Positions 6,410-59,193 of a DNA stretch of 62,851 nucleotides are shown one piece after another. Both the position numbers and the translations under genes were made by a program. The DNA is from Catajapyx aquilonaris (taxonomy: Eukaryota). The DNA lies in contig KZ538548.1 in the NCBI GenBank assembly GCA_000934665.2, forward strand, positions 1-62,851. The letters run 5' to 3'. The notes under the pieces are model-generated. The model was not told where the DNA came from. It worked only from the letters and a program-made list of their open reading frames with translations, and did not search any database. The first letter of the stretch is position 1. Every line of letters starts with the position of its first letter.

Positions 6410-6812
6410 AATTAAGGCCTGAAATTCAAAACACATTCGACTGATTACGATTTTTTTTCACAACGACCTGAAACGTCACCTCCACACTATTAAATGACCC
6501 AGCTAATTACCTCTGGTTGTGCACTCGTCAGATGCAATTACAGCCCTCCAAATAAATAGCTAGTACGTTTAATAAGCCTGCGGTAAATACACTGGTTAAG
6601 TAACCCCAAAGAAAGAAACACTGCGGTTTCGATGGTGCATAGTGGATGGTTGGTAATGATCCCTGGAACATTAAGCGAGCCCTAGAAACGGGTTGCTAGG
6701 ATGACGCAGTTGGCTGGCGACACAAGTCGTCGGATGGAGGTTTTGAGGGGGGTGTATCAGGGGGTGGGGGTACTTGGAATCGATCATAGGACGAGAGGCA
6801 AGAGGAAGCTTA

Positions 6813-6816
<4 letters not shown>

Positions 6817-6863
<47 letters not shown>

Positions 6864-6883
6864 CTCTCTCTCTCTCTCTTCTC
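6817..6883. repeat. (CT)n microsatellite
   Basis: Direct observation. Confidence 0.97.
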
Positions 6884-9800
6884 TTTTCATCGGGAATTTA
6901 TTATCTTGGCCGCTCACCAGAATGCAATTCCTGCTGCCCCGCTTCCATTTCCTCACCAACATTGTTTCACGCCACGATTTATAAGACCTTTACTCAAATT
7001 CTCTTTCGCTGCTCTGAGTTTTACGTATTAAAAGTCATATCCGCATGCTTTCACTTTTAGAGAGAGAGAAAAATTGAGAGAGAGAAATTATTAGGGTGGG
7101 GATATTTCAAAATTGGAATTACTAATCTGATTGGGTTTTTTTTTACCTGGTGAGGTACTTCATCCATGCAGTGTGCTATTCATAGTCTTTGGAAAAAAAA
7201 TGGGCTGGATTTTTGAAGGGTGCTTTTCATGTTATAAATGGCTTTTTTCCGCAATTCTGAGTTTCATTAAGGTACTGATGAAAGATCGTTTTTGCAGCCA
7301 TTTTTGGGATTACATGCTCATAGCACGTTTTGAATTGTTCAATCCAGATACTATGTCGTGATTGTAGCTTTTGCACCACGTTATGTTATAAATAGTCAAA
7401 AACCGTATACGTTTTGTAGAAAGACAGGTTGACAGCATATCATATTAGCACTGTCGTCTCTCGTAATATGTAACAGGCACGCACATTTTTAACAAACAAA
7501 AACGGAATTGCTTTGATAAACACCCTCGCGAGCGGCTTAAAACGCCAAAGAATATCACGCATACTTGCATGCAAAAACATGAACATTGCAATTTTTCCCT
7601 CTCATCTCCGGTATATTACATCACATCTCTCTTTTCCTTTTAAACTCGAGGGAACGTTTGATATCCTGTATAAAATCACTTATGCTTGTCTGGCTACATT
7701 ATAGGCCAGGCAGTTTCTCATACATCAAGCCCCACTTTTAGACTCCCTATTTTCTTCAAAAAAAAAGGTCTTTGTAGCATGCAGGTAAAATAAAATCGGA
7801 TGCAATTGAAGGAGGTGGAGGGGATGAGTATTGGATGAGCTGTCCTCTTTTTTGGGGTGGGGAAAACCCAAAGGGTGTTCTTTCTCCTAAGCCAAGGCTT
7901 GGGGCCAGTTCTCCCAAAGCACCCTTCCTCCTCTTTCAATCTCATGTTGAATTCATGCGATGGGAAAGTTTGACCAAATCTCATTCGCCTCTCAAGGCAC
8001 GACAATAGTCGTTCCCTCACGGGTCAAATTGATAGTGGCAAGTACACCCCAAATTATATCGATACATAAGCGAAAATCAAATTTTTGATTGCATGCAAAA
8101 TAAAACTTGAGCCTCATTTTGGATGAGCCTAATTATTCCCAGGTCTGCTGTTACAATATGCCCTTAGAAGCGGGCGTACTTGATCCAGGTCTTGCTTTAT
8201 GGGCCCAGCTTCCTTGCGTGGATTCTGCTTCAGCTTAGATCCGCTGGAACTGTACCCGTGGATGTCTCTGGGTTATAAAAGCTTCTTCCTTCCCCCCGTG
8301 CGGAAATTTACCTTAATTGGCCCTTGGGAGCACTTGCCCAAAACCAGCTCTCTTATTGTGTGCAGGATTTTTCCTTATGGGGATCCTAGTGTTGCATTTT
8401 TTATTGGATCTGTTTTTTTTCTGTAACACCTTGCACCTGAGCCAGCGTTGACTTTAATGGACACTGGCATTGCCCAGGAAGTTTAAAGTCACGACACCTT
8501 GTAATCTGTGACAAAAAGGGGATGTGGACTTGACATAATCGTGATGTGCTGTGCAAGCTGACCACCACATGCTCCGGAACATTGTCGTCTCCGGTACTGC
8601 TTAGTGCTTCATGTAGTGCCCACAGAGGCGAATATCCGACATACAGTGGCACTCACACGAGAAGGCAGCAGACAGGTTGAGGACTGGCAGATAAAGTCCT
8701 GCTGACACGCCCGTTTCCACCTTCACACTTCCCTCAAGGCTTTAATCTGATTAATCACGCCAACGTGCTAGGAAGTAGGAGACGTAAAAGGAAGTTAGGC
8801 TAATGTGAAATAGTGCGGGAGAGCTGGAATAAGGTCGACTGAAAGCTGGAGGAAACTCCTGGAGAAGAGAATCAGGCTGGAGACTGGTCGATCATACAAA
8901 CCCTTCCTAAAGAAAAATTCAACGAAACTTTTCGACATTGTTGCATCAACCACACTGTTCATCTGGACCATTACTAAAAAAACACTGAAGCAACGTCACC
9001 ATAGTTGACACATCAGGCTGGGAAAACGTCAAATATTTAACAGACTTAAAACCGAATCGAGAGGACATTGAGAGAAAGTAAAGGCAAACGTTTTGGACGA
9101 CTCTTGATGGCGACAATGCCCTCTGGGTATCACAGCAGATGGACTGGATTGAAGCGTTGATATTATATTATAGCTACGGAAAGCGAACAAATATTGTGAC
9201 ACCGGATCCTTGAGCTAGCAAACGAAAGGTTAAAAGCCAGAGCTGGGGGGTTCATTTATTTAGCTAACGAAGTGGTCAAACAACTGAAATTGAGTCGAAA
9301 TGGAGAATTCCAATGAGAGTTGTCAGGCTTAATTAGTTGAACTCTGCTGGGAGGGCAAGAGGAAGAAAATCACCTGATTTTAGGTCAACATCTAAATAAC
9401 CCTTCGTTTGTCAAATCTCTGAGCTTAGCTCTTAAAGTAATGAGAGTCATTCATATCAAAAGTAACAATTGTTGCTAATAAATTATCAGATTTTATTTTA
9501 CAAAATTACTTAGTGGCAATACTGTACGACCTCGCCCATTGTTAATAGACTTTATATCAAAGACTAGTTTATATCAAATTCCCTTTATGTTTTTCAACCG
9601 GATTTTAAAACCCAGCTCTTGATTTAGAGAGCGAAAAATATTCTGCGAGGATCCCCCATGAATATACTCCAGCTTGACTGTCAATGGAGCCGCTGAAGCC
9701 AAACACGAACATTTTTCCGGCCATAATAGCACTAGATGACCTATGTAGCGACAAGGGAGAGGGTGGGGAAAAAAACCAGTGAGAAAAAAAAGCGAAACGA

Positions 9801-18600: not shown

Positions 18601-19533
18601 TGCCAGAACAAATTCGACCCCCAAATACCCCCCGGATTTTCTAGGGGTATTTTTACCGGATTTTGGACTTGACAAGATGAGGTCATTCTATAGATGTAGC
18701 GGTGACAATCAGTTCAAGCGTGATTCGAGTATACTTTTTCTCATTCAAATAGGACAACAATGTTTCCTGTCATCAAAAAGTACAATTCATTTTTTTTTTG
18801 AAAATGTGTTTAGGAAGCGTGTTTCTAATTCCGGGTTGATAATAATTTTGAAGCAGCGGTGCATTCCCCCGTTGCAAATGCTGCTCCCCCATTCCATTAA
18901 TAATGCTTAATGACCAAAAAAACGTGTTCACCCAGACCACATCAGCAGTTATTGGATTTTTTGCTTAATCCTATGGGGATTTCAGCTCGGTGAAATACAG
19001 GGGCTCTATTGACATCTCTCAATAACACAAATCGCGAACTATAGCTTTTTGTGCATCAAAAAGAAGCGGATTGTATGACATCAGTACAGAGTGAGTCACA
19101 ACAGCTAATGGTACCCACTCTATGACAGGAAACTAGGCAATCTAAAGACAAATGGCAAAAGTCAGGTGGAAAGGCAAACAGCCCAGGAAGGTTTGGGAAG
19201 AGGAAGTGTGTCTTATGGCTAGTGTCAATAAGGGTCTTGAAAGATAACTAGACGTTGATGGGGTACCCGGATCACGTCCACTTGACGCACGACTTAACCG
19301 ATAGAGTCGGCAAAGAAGAAAAGGCGGCCGGAAGACGTCTTCCGAAACGCCTTCCCGAGACACCCTCGAATAAAGTCTCCAAAGTTCGATCGTGGGATGC
19401 ATTTTCACCTGGGTCATGCCTTCTGCACTGACAAATCCGGCGAATATTTCACCCCAGACTGTACACTATTTGGGTACCATCACCTTTACAAATTGGATCG
19501 TGCACACTGCTTGTAAAATTATTTCCAACGCTA

Positions 19534-19721
19534 CACTCTTAACCATTTACCTTCTCTAGAGAGGGTAAGAAAGTGGCAATTTTTTTACCTTACATTGTAG
19601 GGTAAATATTCTTGGGTAAATTGATTCAAAGGTAAATTTTGCATGCATTACCTTAGAAAATAGAGGGTAAAAAAGAGGCCCCCCTTTTACCCTCTCTAGA
19701 GAAGGTAAATGGTTAAGAGTG
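19534..19721. mobile_element. MITE family A, internally deleted copy (188 bp)
   Basis: ta|cactcttaaccatttacc…ggtaaatggttaagagtg|ta; most of the right arm is missing. Confidence 0.9.
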
Positions 19722-20293
19722 TACTCAGCGCAGGGTTATTATTGGCGAGAAAATTGTTTTAATAAGGAAAGCTTGCCCCTTTTGTTGTACTGTACAGTAG
19801 TTGTAATATCCATGCTGTTTGTACCACATATATATTTTGCTTTGTGGTACACTAATTTAGGAGTTTCTCTCTGCAGACCATGCATCGCTGCAACATATGT
19901 TCACATAAGCAAAAGTTTGTGTACTGCAACCCAAACATGGCATTTACCAGCCAGAATCCAGTGAAATTTTTTTTGTGTGTGCAAATAACATGTGCGTTAT
20001 TTCCAAGCCTGGGACCAAGTATTCAAGGTTGAGGGGAAGTCATTGGTGATCAATAGGTTTCCAGCTTCTTTTGGTGGGATGTTTGCTTCGTTCTGAAACC
20101 ATATTCCCATAGGCTTTAATATTTCTCTTTTGCTGTCGTTTCTTATTCGCTCATCCGAAAATTTCCATTTTGGTTGGTCCTTCTGGGTTTTTTTAAAAAA
20201 GTTTGAAACAATTGAAAGACGCCGATTGGTGTGTTACAATATGTGCAAAAATGGGTTGAAAATATTTGCAACATTGCTTATTATGGATATCAA

Positions 20294-38805: not shown

Positions 38806-39531
38806 TTCGTTTTCCTTTAAAATGTAACCAGAAAAATATGTGTGGCTTCGGTTATAGTTCTCCCCTAATGCTTATGCAACAGCCATTAACTGTTCTGGAG
38901 AGGCGGGCAGAGTAATTGGAAATAAAACTGATGATCATGGATGGGTCCTTTATAGCTACAGGCTTATTACAACACCTGACTGCATCGTAACTCTCCTCAG
39001 ATGGAACTAGGAAGCAGCAAGGGAACATTACCCTCGCCGCTCTAATTGCGCTGTCAAGCAAGTCGCACAAAACAACTATTTTCGGTAGATGTTTGTAATT
39101 TTGTTAAGTGGAAATTTTGGGAAGGGGGGGGGGGGTCCACGCATTTTGAGTAAAGAAAAGGTAGGGGGTAGGGGGAAAATCTGGAAGGAAATTCCAGGAG
39201 GATGCAAAGTGCAGGGGTTTGCCCAAGGCATTACCGTGTGGAAGGCGCCGTTACTAGAGCCGAGAAATGTTTCCTTTTACCTTCCCCCCCACCACCTTTC
39301 CAGAGAGTATATTCCATCCGTCCAAACTCTGAGGGAGAGAGTTTACTTAGGCCTCTAGGGGAATTCAGGCAGTTGTGGAATTGGGAAGAGCAACATCCCC
39401 CACCCCCCTCCCACCCCTTTGTTTACTTCCTATTCAGGTCCCCTTTTAAGGTTCCTTTTTTATATAAGAAAATGAGAGGATTCCTTTTCGTTGGGGGGGG
39501 TATTGTAATGACCGGATTCCTGGAGCCAAAA

Positions 39532-39628
39532 CTAGTAAGGGTGAAAGTCGCATGCATCCCATGCACTAATCCCCTCTGGGTCAGGCGGGATTAGTCCAGG
39601 GCATGCATACGACTTTCACCCTTACTAG
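39532..39628. mobile_element. Small hairpin MITE family B
   Basis: ctagtaagggtgaaagtcgcatgcat…atgcatacgactttcacccttactag inverted repeat; second copy at 42524. TSD is ambiguous. Confidence 0.85.
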
Positions 39629-42523
39629 ATTGGAAAAAAAAATTGCGAAAATTTTAACATAGCAGCAGGTTGTGCAAAACGCTGGTTTATTTTTCCATAT
39701 CCTTTCATCGCGTCCTTTCAGTGTGTGTGCAACTGAAAAACGCGCTTAGGAAGAGCTTCAGCCACTTTAAGCTCTGAGGCCAAAATGGTGGGGGGGACGA
39801 AATAGGGCGAAGGAAATTGGCGTCGCTTGGTTCGATATAAAATGGAGTCGATTTCCTTAGACCTTACACAAAAAGAATGGATACAGAGGGCTATATAGCT
39901 CGATTCTTTTTTGGAGCCCAATGTTGATTAGAAACCATCTCCATCTCATCTGAGCAAAATTGTGAGTTTCATCTGACGGAGTGGGAGGGTAGAAAAAAGG
40001 CAGTGTTGCCAAGTGTGTGGAAAATGAGCGTCGTAATTTTAGCCTGGTTTTTTTTGCAGTGAATGGCTGATTAGGACTGAGCGTAAGTGTAATGAAATAG
40101 TCAAAATGTACGTCATATGGTTATAATTAGCTGTTAATATCAGAGGGCAGATTATTAATATTGTTACTGAACTATGCAACATTTAAAGTGCATAAAAATA
40201 TGCACATATGCACCTGGGCCAACTGACTTTATGCTCACAATGCCATAATTTGTTTATGCATTGGTCTGCAGTATATATAATTTGTTTATCAACTTGCCTA
40301 CATATTTTCAGGATGGTAAATAAAACGTGTATGGAGCAAGAGCAGGTGTATAAATATTCGATGAATATATTCATTTATCCTGCATTAAATTTTATTTACC
40401 TGTCCCAACATTCGTGCAGCTAGTTAATATGCGCTTAAAACTTTAATTAATATGGCCGGTACATAAATTTTCCTGTAGGCAAATTATTTTATGCGGGAAT
40501 GTGCATAAATGCAGGATAGCATAATATTATGCAATGCAATGTTATTGCTGTTATGTAATGTCGATTATTGTTTCTAAAAACCAGTTTTACCTGCAACCTG
40601 CCTTACGTGTCAGCTAGTGTGTTTTTTTTTCAGTTTTAAAATCCAAAATTGCATTTTCCACTTTTAGAATGATTAACACAGGATCTGCGGCCATTTAGAG
40701 ATCCGTTTCCATACTCTAAGCAGGACTTAAGCCCGTCTTGAACTGCATAATCCATATCCAACGCCCCCTTTTTAATGATGCGTAAGAACTCTGTTGAGAT
40801 TGGGCTTTGTGAAAACTTTGCACGGAAACTTCGCACGTACGAAGCAGAACCCAGAGTGGTTCATGTCAGCCGGCCATTTTAACATCCAGGTAATATTTTA
40901 ATCCGGGAATCCACGAGCCTTATTACGACGCTCCCATCTCCTTCAGTTGCAAAAACTGTGGGGATGGGATGAAACTGGTTCCAAGGAGTAAGTTTTCAGC
41001 CTTCATTTCCCCCCCTCACTGGCTTCCACCCACTGAGTTTTAATTATGGAAGGGATGCCACCCCATCTTAACAACCACCATTTGCATTCTGGTTCTATAT
41101 ATTTTTTATACTCAGTTTTAGCAAAGACGGAAATTTACCCATTAAAAAAATTCAGTACAGCTTCATTAGTTTTTTTAAAATGGTCGTTCGGTTAAATTAG
41201 CTTAGGCTAACCATCGGCATTTGAGATGGTCCCAGGACAGGCTTTAAGTGTGGGACCAGTTTTAGGGGCGCGGTGCTTTTTATCTTATTGCGTTACTTCC
41301 TGATGGGCTAAGCTGTTGTATGGGGGGTTTTAAATGTTTTGTTGCTAATTAGACCTATCCAATTAATTTTTTTTGCAAATTTAATAACACGAAAGTTATC
41401 GCAGCAGGTGATCCGGAGTGGGTTGCAGTGTTGCATTGTGGTGTATATTTTCAACTTGGATTCATGTCTCGCTAAATCTAGTTGACATCTCCATGACAAC
41501 TGAGTAGGGTCTGATGTTTGTAGCCCAGGATGGAAATCTGATGATGTAGCTAACTGAGAAGCCATTACGAAGTGTCTGACGTCAGCTTTTTGATTCAGGG
41601 TGACCCCTATGGGGACATGGCCCAATCGATACCAAGTTTGCGCCAAAAGTTGAGAGGAAATATTTGAAGTCAGGACGATGGGAAAAGTTTCTTTAAAAAA
41701 AAAAAGAGGACCAAACTGAATCCATTGGCCTTTTGGGAACAGTTGTTTTTTTGGGAGGAAAATTTGCTGTATTTTTTGTGATAAATAAAAAAATTGGGCG
41801 GATACATGGTATTTATTTATAATTTGCGGTCTTGATTGATGGATGTGTCGAAAACTTAGATGCGAGTTTAAGTATGATGCGAAAGGGAGTAGCCACTGGT
41901 GCGGAAGTGCCTTGAGCCTTTTCCCGATAAATGGGAAAGGAAAAATCAATTTTCTGAGGAAATCTTCCCCCCTTCCAGCTCTTGGAAACTTGAGACTTAA
42001 AGTGTAGGAGGGGGGGATTTAGAAAGGGGCTGCAATTTCCAATTCCAACCGCTTAAGGACGCCCTAGGCAGCACAAGAAACTCTAACAGAGAAGACAGCC
42101 TCTGTTTCAACTCCAATTGCATAATCTGATGATCAGAATTTGAGAGTAATTAGCTTCATAACAATAAGCACTTTGTGGTTAGGAAGGGTTTTAGAAAATG
42201 CCAACCTGAATATACAGATTGATCGGTCTGATTGGGGGACTTGATTAATCCTGGGTGATTATTGGCATAAATCCGGATTGATGTCGGCGTAAATTTCATA
42301 AGTTCGCCAAATCCTGAGCGAATCTGTCGTTAAGCCTGCGTTAAACCCGATGTATACACCTAATTAAAGAGTAATTTTCTACTCGATAAGGTGCTAATGA
42401 AAACCTAGGCATATTATTAATTTAAAAAATAGTAACTCCCTTTATTATACAGTATTTACACATTGAGGCAGCACAAATTATTGCTGTTCTGCCATCCAAA
42501 TGAGAAACACCCTAACTGCAAAA

Positions 42524-42660
42524 CTAGTAAGGGTGAAAGTCGCATGCATGCCGTGCACTAAACCCCCCTGACTCAGTGCCGGACATGCATGCGACTTTCA
42601 CCCTTATACTCTTAACCATTTACCTTCTCTAGAGAGGGTAAATGGTTAAGAGTGTATTAG
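42524..42660. mobile_element. MITE family B, copy 2 (interrupted by mini family A)
   Basis: Same TIRs as 39532-39628. Confidence 0.85.
42607..42654. mobile_element. MITE family A, 48-bp mini copy nested in the right TIR of family B
   Basis: ta|tactcttaaccatttaccttctctagagagggtaaatggttaagagtg|ta interrupts ccctta-ctag of family B. Confidence 0.88.
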
Positions 42661-42712
42661 TTTTGACGTTTAGGTGTTTATCCTTATCATTCAGCCTTCT
42701 GGTGAGTGTTGG

Positions 42713-42816
42713 TCACCATTTGCCAAAAAAACTGATCCAATCAGGAATCTTCTGAAATTCTTCATGTGATGCCTTGCATGTTGTTGTGCAAGTTGTTGAA
42801 CAGTATCTTGATTCAG
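42713..42816 (-). CDS. Candidate nested gene, exon 3
   Basis: A 72-nt intron (gtgagt...ctaacatgtag) removes an in-frame TAA; continues (P)ESRYCSTTCTTTCKASHEEFQKIPDWISFFGKW*. The acceptor is weak. Confidence 0.35.
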
Positions 42817-42888
42817 CTACATGTTAGATAATATTCGGGTGTGAATCAGCAGAGATTTCTGGGTTAGGGTTTTTAGTAAGAAACTCAC

Positions 42889-43059
42889 GAGAAGTTTGAG
42901 TGGTGATGTTAGGAACTTCCGAACAGTCGCACTCGACGCATTTCTTAAGGTACCCGTCGTTCTGTCTGGAGCACGAACATCTGGTGCATTTCAATGAGAC
43001 CAAGTTCATGCAATATTCGGATTTGTGGCAGTTCGCTGCCGTTGCAACTTGAAGTGAAC
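42889..43059 (-). CDS. Candidate nested gene, exon 2 (8-Cys module, TNFR/Grindelwald-like spacing)
   Basis: Acceptor tttttag|, donor |gtgagt, 171 nt, phase 1-1. (G)SLQVATAANCHKSEYCMNLVSLKCTRCSCSRQNDGYLKKCVECDCSEVPNITTQTS. Confidence 0.5.
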
Positions 43060-43348
43060 CTAAAAATTGACACCAAAATTGACGTTGACGTTTTAGCTGG
43101 GTCGTTTATCGTCAGAGAGTCGCAGCTGAGAATAAACTAGATTTATGATTGCTTTTTTTTGTCACAAACCAGGTGGCAAAGTGTCGCCTATAAATTGTGG
43201 AGCCATATTAAATTTTGATCCACACTTGTTCTAAAAACCTCTTAAGGGTATTGCAATTAATAATTAATAAAATAACAGTCGCAAACTATACAGCAGATAT
43301 TTTCTGCACAACTGTTTCGACATGTAGGGTCATCAGTCAAGTACTCAC

Positions 43349-43460
43349 CTGTAGGACATATACCGTTGGTGTAACTTGTGACAGGTACAGTCACAATGCC
43401 AGAGTCGGCCACTGTCGCAATTAGAGTCGCAGTCAAGCACAGGAACATACACGCTTCCAT
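43349..43460 (-). CDS. Candidate nested gene, exon 1 (signal peptide)
   Basis: ATG at 43460; MEACMFLCLTATLIATVADSGIVTVPVTSYTNGICPT has a hydrophobic N-terminus; strong donor CAG|GTGAGT, phase 1. Confidence 0.5.
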
Positions 43461-45042
43461 TCTGTCCTTCTTAAAAACCAATTTCAGTGAGATTAGCTTT
43501 TAAATTTAAAAACGTGGTGTTGCACCGTACTTACTTTCTGATGTGGTCTGGCAGCTTATTCTCACGAGGGATGGAAGAACTCTGGCCAGTTCATTCAAAT
43601 ATGTGCATATATACCTTGGTTAAGATGTACACAACATGTGTGCATCTCCTTGATAAGTGGCAGCTGGGATTTGACATGCAAATGATATGGCCAGCGTGCA
43701 ATTTACCAACGCAATATTGAAGCTTTCTCATGCAAACTGGACCACAAAATGACGTAGTACTGGATAGTAATGACCTTATAGTGCAGCGTACGTGCATGAT
43801 ACATAGCATGTAAGTAAACAACCTTTTGCGTCATTTTAAGGTCAACATCTATGACGTCAAGGCCTTATGCTGAAACGCAACTGTTTTCCAGTCACGTGTA
43901 GTCATCTCTCATACTTTGGGAAAGAATTTTCTCATTACATCCTGGAAATTGCGAACGCTCGACCAGCAATTTTTACAGGCGCTACAAGCATTTGTGTCAA
44001 CTTCACACTGAAGCAGTACTTGATATTTCAAAGGAAAAATTTACATTTAGTGAATATGCGAACAATTTACTGTACAGTACATTGACAGCCATAACCACCG
44101 GTATGGCCTATAAACAACGCATATTCCCTCATAACAGATGTTGGGCCAGCTATTAAAACAAATTGGACCAAAATTACTGGGATTAATATATACAATAATG
44201 ATAACCTCATTATTAATATTAATAACGCACACAAAGCCCCCCCCCCCCGTTTAATTCTGGCAAATTAACCGCTTTTATAACCGCCAGTTTAAACGGATTT
44301 GCACAATTATCCTAGATAACAAGACGCAACTACCTTGGAGTAATGGTCCAGGGGAAGTAATAACACTAATAATGAAAACAAGGGGTACCCAGAGTAGAAT
44401 ACCGAATACCATGTCCCATTGGTTAAAAGCAGAATGAACCTCTAGTATTTTTTTCCCAGCCAAATGGCGTCGCGGGCGCCAAAGTTTTGAGGCCAAATGT
44501 CTTCATTAAAAGGGCAATGAATTTTAATCAGGATGCAAATCGACTCGGCGGCAATTAACATTCCAGGTGAGACCCTAGGAAGATTTGAACAATGGAGGCT
44601 CCCTGGGCGATCATTTTGGGACCTCCCCCGCCCCTTCTCGAAAACTTGTGCCCCCTCTTTCAATCTATGTACTGTAACTGTACTAAATACATACGTGAAC
44701 ATTACACAAAAGAGGAAGAGAAAGTTTGTCACGCTTCATTCAATTTGAACAAGTTGAGGCTAGGAATCTAATCCTTTTCCCCCTTAATTACTCCCAGTAG
44801 GGCCATCATATTGAGTTCCGGATCATTAGGGAATGTATAAGTGCGGAAGTGATATTAAGGGGAGGTTTCTAGGGAAAAAAAAGAGTTTTTTTTCCAAGAG
44901 CTGAAGTTGGATGTGAATGATTTTAGAAGGGAGTTGTTGAACCAAAGATGCTCTGCCTTACAGTATTATTCTTCAGGGAACGATGAATCAATGTTGTTGG
45001 CATGGTGAAGATTTTCATTGCTTTTTGAAAATATTATTTTAA

Positions 45043-54376: not shown

Positions 54377-55049
54377 TTCTTAGGACATAGCAAAAGACTA
54401 ACGACGCCGTGTGGACAAGGAACAAACATAGGTCCAGACAAAAGTAGTCGCATGTGTTCCCCACTTTGTGTCTCCAAAGTTTACTTTAATAATGGGATTC
54501 TAAAAGGACCCGAAGGAAAAAATGAGAGAATTTTCCTTTCTTATAGAAAGAAAACCCAAAAATGAAATTCATCCCTCTAAGGCATTTTTTTTCTCCATCT
54601 CCTTCTTGTTCTTCTGGGTGTCCAATTTCTTCTACCTTCCAAGGAGAGCAAATTAAATTCTTCCTCGGAACTACCAAAAACAAGTTCCTGTTCCGGAAAG
54701 GTTCTTATTTCCGGATAGGATATTGGTTGGAGCGGAAGTTGAGTTAGGAAACAAAATGGCGGGTGGTGCGATAGGTAGAAAATGATGGACGCCCAACTCT
54801 GGTCGCGGAAACATCAGCTGTTCTTTACGACGGCCATTTTCGAATGGGGACCACTAAAGCAAAGGGGGCTGGGGGCGGGGGGGATCGTCAATGGCGCCGT
54901 CTTTTTTCGGCCACAACCGATCTTCCAGGGGGTATTTTGCCAGTTTATCGACGGTTGGGAAGAGATTGGGGGTGGAAATACGGAGAGGCGACAATAATTT
55001 CCAAGTTGGTCCGAATTAATGGATAGAATTTTGATAAGTTTTGGGTCTA

Positions 55050-55337
55050 CACTCTTAACCATTTACCTTCTCTAGAGAGGGTAAGAAAGTGGCAATTATT
55101 TTTACCTTACATTGTAGGGTAAATATTCTTGGGGAAATTGATTCTAAGGTAAATTTTGCATGTATTACCTTAGAAAATAGAGGGTAAAAACGGGCCTCTT
55201 TTTACCCTCTATTTTCTAAGGTAATACATGCAAAATTTACCTTAGAATCTATTTACCCAAGAATATTTACCCTACAATGTAAGGTAAAAAGTGGCCACTT
55301 TCTTACCCTTTCTAGAAAAGGTAAATGGTTAAGAGTG
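55050..55337. mobile_element. MITE family A, full-length palindromic copy (288 bp, TA TSD; CACT termini, CMC/EnSpm-like or Tc1/mariner-mobilised)
   Basis: Near-perfect inverted repeat over almost its whole length, flanked by TA on both sides. Confidence 0.93.
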
Positions 55338-57055
55338 TAGCGCTTGTAACCGAATGTATAGTCCTAGTGTTATCAGACACGGACAAGAGACTATTGGGGA
55401 AGTCTAATTCCAAGGCTGTTATTTCCAACTGCCTCTTATCTCTTGAAGGCACGTGCTTAAGGGCGGGATATTTTGATTTACAGGTCCAAAGTATGGCCGC
55501 CATTTCATCTACATTGCCGTTTAACGACTTTCTGGCAGATGTCTGTCGGCGGAAGAACCACACCCTATAGTTCATCATACTAGTGTAGGAATTATGGTTG
55601 ACCCACAGAGGTCAGTGCTATTGTTCAGGACCTGTCGTAAGATATCAGCTGGACTATAAGCCCAATTTGTGGGGGTTAAACATGGTTTAATTGGGAGCTT
55701 GGTTTTAGGATCAGTCGAATTGAAGCGGACTGCTATTGCACTTTTTATAGCCTCCATTCCAGTGCGAATTTTCCGGTCATGGCCTGAACCTCCAGAAGGC
55801 ACATCTCTTTTTTTTCCCACGTTCATAAATTCGCAGTTGAGTGCATTTTGCGTGGTTTATGGAAGTGCTCAAGAGATGGATATTGAAAAGCGTGGAAGAA
55901 AAAAAAAAAGCGAGAGAATCAAAAATAAAGCGTGGAAATGAAGCTTTGATATTTTTTTTATTTTTCTTTTGGAGAAAATGGGTCGAAACCGATTTTTTGT
56001 TCATATGTGCCTACAACGTAACTTATATCCAGCCATACCTGTGCATGACGTGTCCCAAAACCGAACGTGACATGAACTGCCCCAGGGTCTCCCACAACTC
56101 TGTACACGGCACAAAATCGCTGAAAAACATACCTCGCAACTAATTAAACTTGAAACAAAGGTTGAGAAGCAACTCGTAATAAATTTTTTGAAATATTTTC
56201 TTTTGTGTGCCCATTCCTTGATTTTTTGGACACATGGAGCAGTTTCCTGCATATCACCTTCCCCACCCCTACATATATATCCAAACCCAAACCTTCCTAT
56301 CACCTCCATAAACCTTGTTTATGGGTCTCGTGGCTTGAGGGGGAATCTGGCTAGCAGGGTTACCAGCTGTAGCCTTAACCGCATCTCTAAAAACAGAAAA
56401 AATGCTTGCTTTCTATTATTTCCCCCCCCCAGCAGCTTCACTCTTGGTTTTTGAACCACAAGTGCAATAGACGGCGTTGGTATCGCAGGCTATGATTGCG
56501 CTGAAACAAAAGTTTGCATAATTTATAGAGACGCGCAGCTGGGAATTGTCGGCAAATCCGCATGATTATACGGCCAGTGTGGTTATCTACCTCCCGTTTC
56601 TCTATTATTGGGGGGGGGGGGGAGGAGGGTCTGAATAAGTTATTAGCACAATTTTATGAGGCGGGGTTTGTCTGCTAAATATTTTGCGTGGAAAAGGATA
56701 CCTTCCAGGATTGATTTTGCGAGTGGCTACACTGATTTCAGTGGAAGTTGTTCCTGTGAAATAAAATTTCTGTCAGTTGTAAAAATACGGCCTTAAAAAA
56801 TTACGTATAATTAATTTGGTTTAAGATTGTCGCTGGAAGCTGCCAAAATTTTATACTTTTAACTTATTTTGTTTATTATTTAATTCGTATCATTTTATCA
56901 TTTTATTGTATTATCATATTTATTGTTTTATTGTATTTATTCTCATTTTTATTGTATTTATTTTAATTTTTATTATTTTATTGTATTTATTATCATTTTA
57001 TTTATCATTTATTATATGGTTTATTTATTTATCAGCATTTATTATCATTTAAATT

Positions 57056-57358
57056 GGCCGAAGCAGTGGTATCGGAGGGGATATGGTATCCGACTGCTAA
57101 TCGGGAGGTCCTGGGTTCGAATCCCGGTGTCCGCCGACCCTGAGCGTGATTTTCTGTGGTTTCCCATTGTCTCACCAGGAAAATTCCGGGGTCGTGTCCG
57201 TAATTATAGGCCACAGCCGCTTCCTTCCGTCCCTATCCCATCCCCATATACGAGAAGTAAAAATGAAAGCAAGAGTTCCAGATAATAAAAAATATGGTGG
57301 TATCCCACCCCCCTAAGAGGGCCCATGGCTCTAGCACGGGGTACAAATTATTATTATT
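57056..57358 (+). mobile_element. tRNA-derived SINE with Nin/Deu-like central domain
   Basis: A-box-like tggtatcggagggg, B box GGTTCGAATCC (57114-57124), central ttttctgtggtttccc…aggccacagccgcttccttcc, (TTA)n tail, TSD attatcatttaaatt on both sides. Confidence 0.9.
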
Positions 57359-58308
57359 ATTATCATTTAAATTAATATTATTTATTTTTTATTTATTTAA
57401 TTTATTATTTAAATATATGAATTGTTTTAATACAATTCAACAATACAATAAATAAAATGAATAAATGAATAAATCATTCATTCATTTTATTTTATATTAT
57501 ATCGTTTACTTATTTTATGTGATATAATTTATTTATTGTTAATGTTATGTAATTTTTATAAGAAATGTAGGTGATTGCCGATATTTAAAATCAAATGTTC
57601 TCTAAAATATTACATGTTTCGGACCAAAGTTTCGGACGAAAATGTGTCGGTCGAAGTGCATCCGCAAATTATCGGGAATAAGTCATGTCCTAATTGGACG
57701 AGATTATTTCTGTCCCTATAGAGACGATAATAATTTTAAGCAGAACCACAGTCTGCCAAAGTTTGGCCCCCTTTTTAGGCNCCGGACAATGAAACAAACA
57801 TCGCGCCTCTATCTGTTGTTTATGGATTAAACTCTGGTCCCGACCAGAATTGGCCCTGCAACATTAATGGAGCCCTGCTTCCAACTGGGTCACACGGCGA
57901 GGTCAAGGTCACCCCCCACCATGACCTTGCACGTCCCCGCCCTCTCTGGAGACGCTTCGGCGAAGAAAAGGCGCATAATGAGACGGTTTGGAGTTATCCT
58001 AGTTAATCTGAGAAAACTGGGGGTCTCCATAGCGACCGAATGTTCCCGAGGGACTTTGGAAAAGGGGCTTATGGGAAAATGGGTTTGTGGGGAGAGGAGG
58101 GAAAGGAGGGAAAAGGGGATCAATGCAACCGGGGAGGATGGGTTGTCAAGGAGACTCCCCACCTTGTCACGTGGAAAAACCTTCGCTTAGTCAGCAAGTA
58201 ATCCTGCGTAAGACACACAGGCATCGTTCATCACATCTTGGCCTACATGTCATCTGGAGTACCGCATCCCTCACGTAGATGGCGGAACCCATTTTAGTAT
58301 ACCCCTAT

Positions 58309-58356
58309 CACTCTTAACCATTTACCTTCTCTAGAGAGGGTAAATGGTTAAGAGTG
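58309..58356. mobile_element. MITE family A, 48-bp mini copy
   Basis: cactcttaaccatttaccttctctagagagggtaaatggttaagagtg|ta; differs from 42607-42654 only at base 1. Confidence 0.88.
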
Positions 58357-59193
58357 TATACTAATAGAGGAATGCATTTTGGGGCTGGATCCCGAAAAAA
58401 GGGGGTATAGGAGTCAGGATGATGCATCGTGACATCTACGAATAGGTTCACTTCAGGATTTGTCGCATAGAATTTCTTGGCGGATATTTTTTATGGGCTA
58501 AAAGAAATCTTTCAAGTTAGCATAAGTAATCGTTTCTCGATGAAAAAGCCGGGATGCACTTTAGGGAGAGATTATGACAACCGTGAAAGATTAATGGCCT
58601 CTACTGTACTGTGTCGGTACAATAAAAAGCTATGTGGAGTTCAGAAGTTTTTTTTAAATATATATGTTAATATATAAAAAAAAGTGCATGGCTGATTGAT
58701 GAAGGTCTAAGTACATATTGTATATCATTAACGTATTTATTTTTCCAGTATTTTTTGCGCATATTTGTAACAATCTGGGGGCTGTAGTTATTTTGGTCTA
58801 AAAATACCCATCATTTTAATGAAATTCGGTGACTTTGATGGATTCATCTTGAGCATGTTTACAACTTTCATCATCGGAATTTTCCTTACCTTTTAGTTTA
58901 ATCTCGCTTCATTTTTGCAACACACTTTTCATTCCCCTCTCTTTGGCCAACTAACCCCCAAAACCATCAGAGCCCCCCACAGTCATTATGATGATCCGAA
59001 AATGGGGCATACTCTCTTCCTGCCTGATCCGGATCTTTAAATTACGTCCAATTAACTCACTTGCCAAGCTGAACTGCCGCCATAGCTGCCAACATGGCGT
59101 ATTTTTCACTCCTTCAAATAGGCGATAGCTTAATTCAAATGTTGAACATGGAAAGGTCATCATCAAAAAGGAAATTTTCTATCATTTAAAAGA

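Follow-up and report, generated by a model that had tools for sequence, protein, structure and literature searches.

A candidate minus-strand gene for a small secreted cysteine-rich protein in a Catajapyx aquilonaris contig

A locus on the minus strand of Catajapyx aquilonaris contig KZ538548.1 is, on balance, probably a lineage-restricted orphan gene, with a predicted product that is small, secreted, rich in disulfides and probably glycosylated. The locus lies between positions 42,713 and 43,460 of the window, by which we mean the whole stretch of DNA that was analysed (62,851 nt), and it is a plausible new gene of a common kind, the small secreted Cys-rich protein. In the scheme that we propose, transcription would start about 30 nt past a TATA-like box at 43613, a leader intron of 65 nt may be removed from the transcript, and the ATG at 43460 would serve as the translation start. 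The chain would be directed into the ER by its hydrophobic start, which would be cut off near residue 18, the Cys residues would pair into disulfides (12 Cys in a 128-aa form of the protein, 18 in a 152-aa form), and an NIT site together with a Thr/Ser-rich linker would carry sugars. The protein would be built from a Cys module ending C-x2-C-D-C that is present twice (copies A and B), and the product would be a compact peptide with an extracellular binding, inhibitory or antimicrobial role. It should be noted that the gene model is internally awkward, in that coding-like sequence is found inside intron 1, yet with intron-like GC content.

Exon structure and predicted products

Three minus-strand exons, joined through two GTGAGT donors and separated by introns of 289 and 72 nt, had been proposed in an earlier note on this DNA, and all of these elements were recovered from the sequence at the positions given in Table 1. 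When joined, the exons have compatible phases and give a frame of 387 nt that encodes 128 aa with no internal stop. The motifs quoted from this translation are all present (ICPTG; C-H-K-S-E-Y-C, x7, C-T-R-C-S-C, x10, C-V-E-C-D-C; NIT; and Y-C-S-T-T-C-T-T-T-C), the mature part does hold 12 Cys (14 in total, 12 of them past residue 18), and the list of open reading frames (ORFs) does break the locus up into disconnected fragments only (43260-43499 and 42827-43105). The predicted N-terminus has a 16-residue uncharged run with T-V-A ahead of the likely cut, which would fall after residue 18. The signal-like character of this start is supported by a crude hydropathy ranking, in which its N-terminal hydrophobicity stands tenth among 300 ATG-started ORFs. 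No hydrophobic segment beyond the N-terminal one was found in any of the three product models described below, in agreement with the earlier statement that no transmembrane segment is visible.

Table 1. Features of the candidate locus and its possible products (window positions; a slash marks an exon end)
Feature	Positions	Strand	Description
TATA-like box TATATAT	43607..43613	-	pattern scan; 147-153 nt upstream of ATG; putative promoter element
Putative 5' UTR exon	43535..43583	-	ends AAA/GTAAGT; no ATG
Putative 5' UTR intron	43470..43534	-	65 nt; GTAAGT ... TTTTTAAG, AAG acceptor
Coding exon 1	43349..43460	-	112 nt; ATG start, signal-like start, ...ICPTG; ends CAG/GTGAGT
In-frame exon-1 continuation	43260..43348	-	completes Cys module A (C-P-T-G-E-Y ... 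C-C-x2-C-D-C)
Intron 1, model of the earlier note	43060..43348	-	289 nt; 217 nt with donor at 43276
Exon 2	42889..43059	-	171 nt; after TTTTTAG; ends CTC/GTGAGT; GC 0.47
Intron 2	42817..42888	-	72 nt; GTGAGT ... ACATGTAG
Exon 3	42713..42816	-	104 nt; after ACATGTAG; TGA stop 42715-42713
MITE-like palindromic insert	42499..42685	.	putative 3' UTR; inverted repeats I1-I3
AATAAA poly(A) signal	42441..42446	-	267 nt past stop, first downstream; beyond MITE insert
Possible 67-aa product			first donor unused; 7 Cys past residue 18
Possible 128-aa product			consensus donor 43348; 12 Cys past residue 18
Possible 152-aa product, two-module			weak donor 43276; 18 Cys past residue 18

Exon 2 constitutes Cys module B, with eight Cys in the spacing C-x5-C-x7-C-x2-C-x-C-x10-C-x2-C-x-C. 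Downstream of the module within the same exon is the N-I-T sequon, which at residue 88 is the sole N-x-T sequon of the 128-aa frame, and this is followed by the Thr/Ser-rich linker. Exon 3 provides three further Cys (C-STT-C-TTT-C) ahead of an acidic/aromatic tail, and two of these three derive from a 12-nt in-frame tandem duplication (42775-42798, minus strand; 2 copies, 92% identity). Both the 128-aa and the 152-aa models have an even number of Cys in their mature part.

The frame of exon 1 continues beyond its donor, staying open for 30 codons to a TAA at 43259-43257 and taking in six additional in-frame Cys. This continuation was missed by the earlier note and is newly recognised here. Counted from the ATG, the resulting frame (ORF A) has 67 aa and comprises the signal-like start and a Cys module, module A, and the GTGAGT donor falls within the G-E-Y codons of this module. 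Module B in exon 2 opens C-H-K-S-E-Y and closes C-x2-C-D-C. The closing motif occurs twice in the six frames of the window, both times at this locus, while C-x3-E-Y occurs five times in the window, twice at the locus and there each time upstream of a C-D-C. The locus therefore looks like a two-module design. The two modules lie about 350 nt apart on the same strand in different frames, their longest shared DNA identity is only 10 nt, and with composition kept they are not significantly alike, their score being reached in 238 of 2000 shuffles.

Past the consensus donor there is a weak alternative donor, ACT/GTTATT at 43276, which has the same phase and which, if used, would restore the last Cys codon across the splice junction. 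Since module A straddles the exon-1 donor and module B is exon 2, three products are possible, and the locus may encode proteins of 67, 128 or 152 aa. On signal strength and composition, the 128-aa form is the favoured product; the GC content of the module A remainder is 0.36, the same as in the rest of intron 1, compared with 0.49 in exon 1 and 0.47 in exon 2. The Cys-rich open frame, on the other side, says that the continuation is, or recently was, coding. The exon-1 boundary is doubtful because coding-like, Cys-rich sequence continues beyond it.

The flanks carry further gene-like signals. The leader has no ATG and contains an in-frame stop at 43558-43556, so that the ATG at 43460 is the first start with or without removal of the leader intron. 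The start assigned to the 5' UTR exon, 43583, is a guess placed about 30 nt past the TATA-like box. Across the window the minus strand has 17 GTRAGT sites, of which three are found within 650 nt at this locus (43534, 43348 and 42888), and the exon-1 donor is one of only two full MAG/GTRAGT sites on that strand. The MITE-like insert is strongly palindromic and recurs at least six times elsewhere in the window as detected by blastn (58301-58359, 39527-39628, 19532-19723, 55048-55084, 55303-55339 and 27-63). Rfam and tRNA scans gave nothing at the candidate locus. Of the four ATG-ORFs with the most hydrophobic starts in the window, two lie within 1 kb upstream on the same strand, at 44210 and 44412 (minus strand); an upstream tandem array of similar genes was considered and is not supported, these two ORFs being followed by no Cys-rich frames. 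A 79-aa ORF with eight Cys (43594-43830, minus strand) overlaps the putative promoter, and for none of these three ORFs was the gene structure convincing.

Cysteine content, searches for relatives and window context

The locus was compared with chance expectation by means of a mechanical scan, which called for an ATG, a GTRAGT donor and a pyrimidine-rich YAG acceptor (donor and acceptor twice), and a stop, with a product of at least 100 aa. On either strand of the real window this locus was the only match; at least one three-exon locus was also obtained in 27 of 100 first-order Markov-simulated windows (mean 0.38), and the three-exon layout alone is not more than chance. The cysteine content exceeds chance. 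The maximum in 77 simulated models was 10 Cys, compared with 14 in the candidate. Stop-free 30-aa stretches with at least seven Cys occur twice in the six frames of the window, both of them here as modules A and B, whereas 60 simulations averaged 0.27 per window. TGY triplets are likewise mostly in frame (6/7 in the module A remainder, 8/9 in exon 2 and 3/3 in exon 3, or 17/19 when summed). Because the locus was picked from a very large scan, some chance cases are to be expected and a single p-value of about 0.001 would be insufficient. What persuades is the combination of signals, and it is this combination, not one p-value, that carries the case for a gene.

No repeat copy of the exon region was found in the window by blastn and no tandem repeat by TRF. 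The 7-mer TGCGACT recurs at the locus, with minus-strand starts at 43431, 43283, 43124 and 42931 (spacing 148-193 nt); the four copies are in different reading frames, one is intronic, and two encode C-D. In the window as a whole TGCGACT is present in 12 copies compared with 4.0 expected, a count reached in 0 of 100 shuffles. A degenerate tandem repeat in the DNA, with a unit of about 150 nt, was considered as the source of the Cys-rich frames and rejected, the four TGCGACT-centred units being alike only in the motif itself and TRF reporting nothing.

Searches for relatives were negative throughout. Exon 2 (56 aa) gave no hits at E ≤ 0.001 when searched by phmmer against 1.84 billion representative proteins, and therefore not even a called copy of the sequence itself is present among these representatives. 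Word-index searches found no relative, whether among longer proteins or, for ORF A, among proteins of similar length, and blastn found no paralogue in the window. Against Pfam-A, hmmscan at E ≤ 10 returned no domain family for exon 2, ORF A, mature ORF A or exon 3, with the qualification that its speed filters discard most very weak matches; it returned only one row, in which the hydrophobic start weakly matched PGG. PDB sequences gave non-significant rows only, the best of them (E 0.26) being a double zinc-ribbon protein, and searches of the PDB with ORF A and with a two-module profile gave zero rows. Pattern matches were obtained in metagenome contigs (207) and viral contigs (8), none of which was confirmed, and for neither exon 2 nor ORF A did the ESM Atlas provide a usable hit. 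Language-model recognition values were 1616 and 1860, below the 2300 reached by 91 of 100 known-family proteins, although according to the tool itself this value is no test of whether a gene is real. Queries of 56-66 aa miss relatives below about half identity, and the result should therefore be read as "no close relative" and not as "unique".

AlphaFold models of exon 2 and ORF A built from single sequences were weak (mean pLDDT 64 and 48, respectively). Foldseek comparison of these weak models with the PDB gave nothing at E ≤ 0.001, and a wide VIA-align search had a best Z of 2.4 with no TNFR listed, a result that is informative neither way. The weak exon-2 model tentatively places a beta-hairpin between the two C-x2-C motifs.

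The earlier note had described the locus as antisense and nested in an intron. No host gene was recognised by Pfam in 402 stop-to-stop ORFs of at least 55 aa from both strands, in the 109 of 246 plus-strand ORFs of 38-54 aa that lie between 30 and 56 kb, or in the 13 long ORFs of the window. The only Pfam match among the 402 ORFs was to Atrophin-1 (6674-6886, minus strand; E 3.8e-6, 25.8 bits compared with a cut-off of 29.9). An Atrophin-1 exon at this position was rejected, the match being below the cut-off in a low-complexity Arg-Glu dipeptide repeat for which no relatives were found, and the ORF is probably GA-rich simple sequence. The plus strand has more G than C and more T than A (overall GC skew +0.055, AT skew -0.023), and most 2-kb bins of the window have a positive GC skew. 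Transcription-linked strand asymmetry exists in other animals, and by analogy the skew is compatible with a long plus-strand transcript. The window may lie within a long intron or a gene-poor stretch. An Rfam tRNA match at 57077-57135 (plus strand; 33.8 bits, threshold 29), for which ARAGORN reports no tRNA, may be a tRNA-derived repeat or pseudogene.

Weighing of alternative explanations

Two alternatives dispense with a working gene. The locus could be non-coding DNA, perhaps part of an intron of a large gene, in which a signal-like ATG-ORF and splice-like sites have arisen by accident and a locally recurring DNA motif makes some of the Cys codons. Three-exon models do arise in 27 of 100 simulated windows, the four TGCGACT copies in different frames, one of them intronic, point to a motif at the DNA level, and there are neither homologues nor a recognisable gene anywhere in the window. 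Chance would, however, have to place the two most Cys-dense open stretches of 125.7 kb of six-frame sequence next to each other on the same strand, with 17 of 19 TGY triplets in frame, an N-terminal hydrophobicity within the top 3% and three of the 17 GTRAGT sites clustered at the locus, and none of the simulated models has more than 10 Cys; we accordingly hold this explanation to be unlikely, while giving it the most weight among the alternatives. Ranked after it, and likewise doubtful, is a decaying or recently dead gene, in which a once longer Cys-rich region that coded for both modules within a single product has become fragmented, leaving remnants that no longer work. In keeping with such a history are a Cys-rich frame that enters intron 1 and stops after 30 codons, modules in different frames, the intron-like GC of the module A remainder, the lack of detectable relatives and the MITE in the 3' flank. 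Against a relic stand the full ATG-to-stop frame, which survives across two consensus donors and a pair of good acceptors of matching phases, the even Cys count, and an intact start context with no upstream ATG in the leader.

The remaining alternatives accept the coding sequence and change its meaning. Exon 2 could belong to a different, larger or intracellular product in which the C-x2-C knuckles, 10 residues apart, form a zinc ribbon, the signal-like exon being unrelated. The best PDB match, to a double zinc-ribbon protein (E 0.26), is in keeping with this but is not significant, and the hairpin suggested by the weak model between the two C-x2-C motifs would also suit it. Set against these points, exon 2 is part of just one three-exon model that starts with an ATG, and this model includes the signal-like exon; the exon-2 frame has no ATG upstream before the acceptor; and the additional Cys suit a secreted protein, as do the NIT sequon and the Thr-rich linker. 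We hold a zinc ribbon to be very improbable. The earlier note had raised, as one option, a soluble decoy receptor with a TNFR/Grindelwald-like cysteine-rich domain (CRD), which would here be a decoy for the TNF ligand Eiger. C-P-x-G-x-Y is a typical start of a TNFR CRD, and module A opens in this way; the signal-like start and the lack of a membrane segment would also be in order for a decoy. Module B has eight Cys, the count given for the Grindelwald CRD in PMC8024323, which also describes Grindelwald as very poorly similar to other TNFRs, so that sequence negatives are weak evidence. The proposed likeness was nevertheless not borne out. No TNFR-type Pfam family was matched at E ≤ 10, the TNFR_c6 profile in particular remaining unmatched by hmmscan against Pfam-A at that threshold, and no TNFR or Grindelwald chain was among the matches at E ≤ 10 (phmmer and two-module profile) in a copy of the PDB that may lack Grindelwald. 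The C-x3-C-x11-C-x3-C of the C2 module, as given in the same source, is absent from the candidate spacing, and the weak model has a putative beta-hairpin where that account has a helix-loop-helix. We would therefore leave this reading only the slenderest of chances, and the same applies to its most elaborate form, in which a soluble single-module TNFR-like decoy beyond the reach of sequence methods would tune Eiger/TNF while the choice of first donor switched between one-module, swapped-module and two-module forms. That a small probability is kept at all is because Grindelwald itself is very divergent, which makes a negative sequence search weak evidence against a TNFR. The reading that we prefer remains the lineage-restricted gene for a small secreted protein.

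Significance and relation to known systems

If real, the secreted-protein gene would be a further example of the small secreted genes, often with roles in immunity, feeding or reproduction, that are missed when arthropod genomes are viewed through their ORFs. A notable feature of the locus is the consensus splice donor inside a cysteine module, which could be the result of intron birth in coding sequence or could reflect a splice-site choice that swaps modules. The present value of the locus is as an annotation candidate, and none of the tests linked it to TNF signalling.

Grindelwald is one point of comparison. Its ectodomain contains eight Cys in four disulfides, arranged as an X2 beta-hairpin and a C2 helix-loop-helix with the consensus C-x3-C-x11-C-x3-C; a membrane helix and an intracellular portion come after it, and in sequence the receptor is only very poorly similar to other TNFRs, according to the published description (PMC8024323). 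On that description, the likeness is that eight Cys occur in one CRD, as in module B, and it is a likeness of count only. The differences are that the C2 pattern is not contained in the module B spacing, that the weak model may put a beta-hairpin where Grindelwald has its helix-loop-helix, and that the candidate is without a transmembrane helix or the intracellular region that binds Traf2 and Veli. As only the Cys count is common to the two, with no C2 pattern, membrane segment or match, the candidate is not filed as TNFR-like. Single-CRD TNF receptors more generally (Grindelwald, BCMA, TACI and Fn14) share with the predicted protein one compact extracellular module of eight Cys (PMC8024323); they differ in having other Cys spacing and a membrane and intracellular part, and no sequence or profile similarity to them was found.

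The motif C-x2-C-x-C is a hallmark of VWC domains. SVWC/Vago-type proteins, with a single von Willebrand factor C domain, are a second point of reference. Members of this arthropod family are small and secreted, and their eight conserved Cys form four disulfides (review PMC13115929). The eight Cys of module B match this number, whereas the whole mature candidate has 12 or 18. The SVWC profile is also without a match, because no Pfam domain family was matched at E ≤ 10, and the PDB gave no match either.

The closest known kind is that of the arthropod lineage-restricted small secreted Cys-rich proteins (immune, salivary, venom or seminal). The candidate differs from them in fitting no family and in having a gene model that is ambiguous at the first donor. 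It resembles them in its signal-like start, its mature length of about 110-135 aa and its even Cys count, and equally in its short introns, its linkers rich in sugar sites and the lack of relatives outside a narrow lineage.
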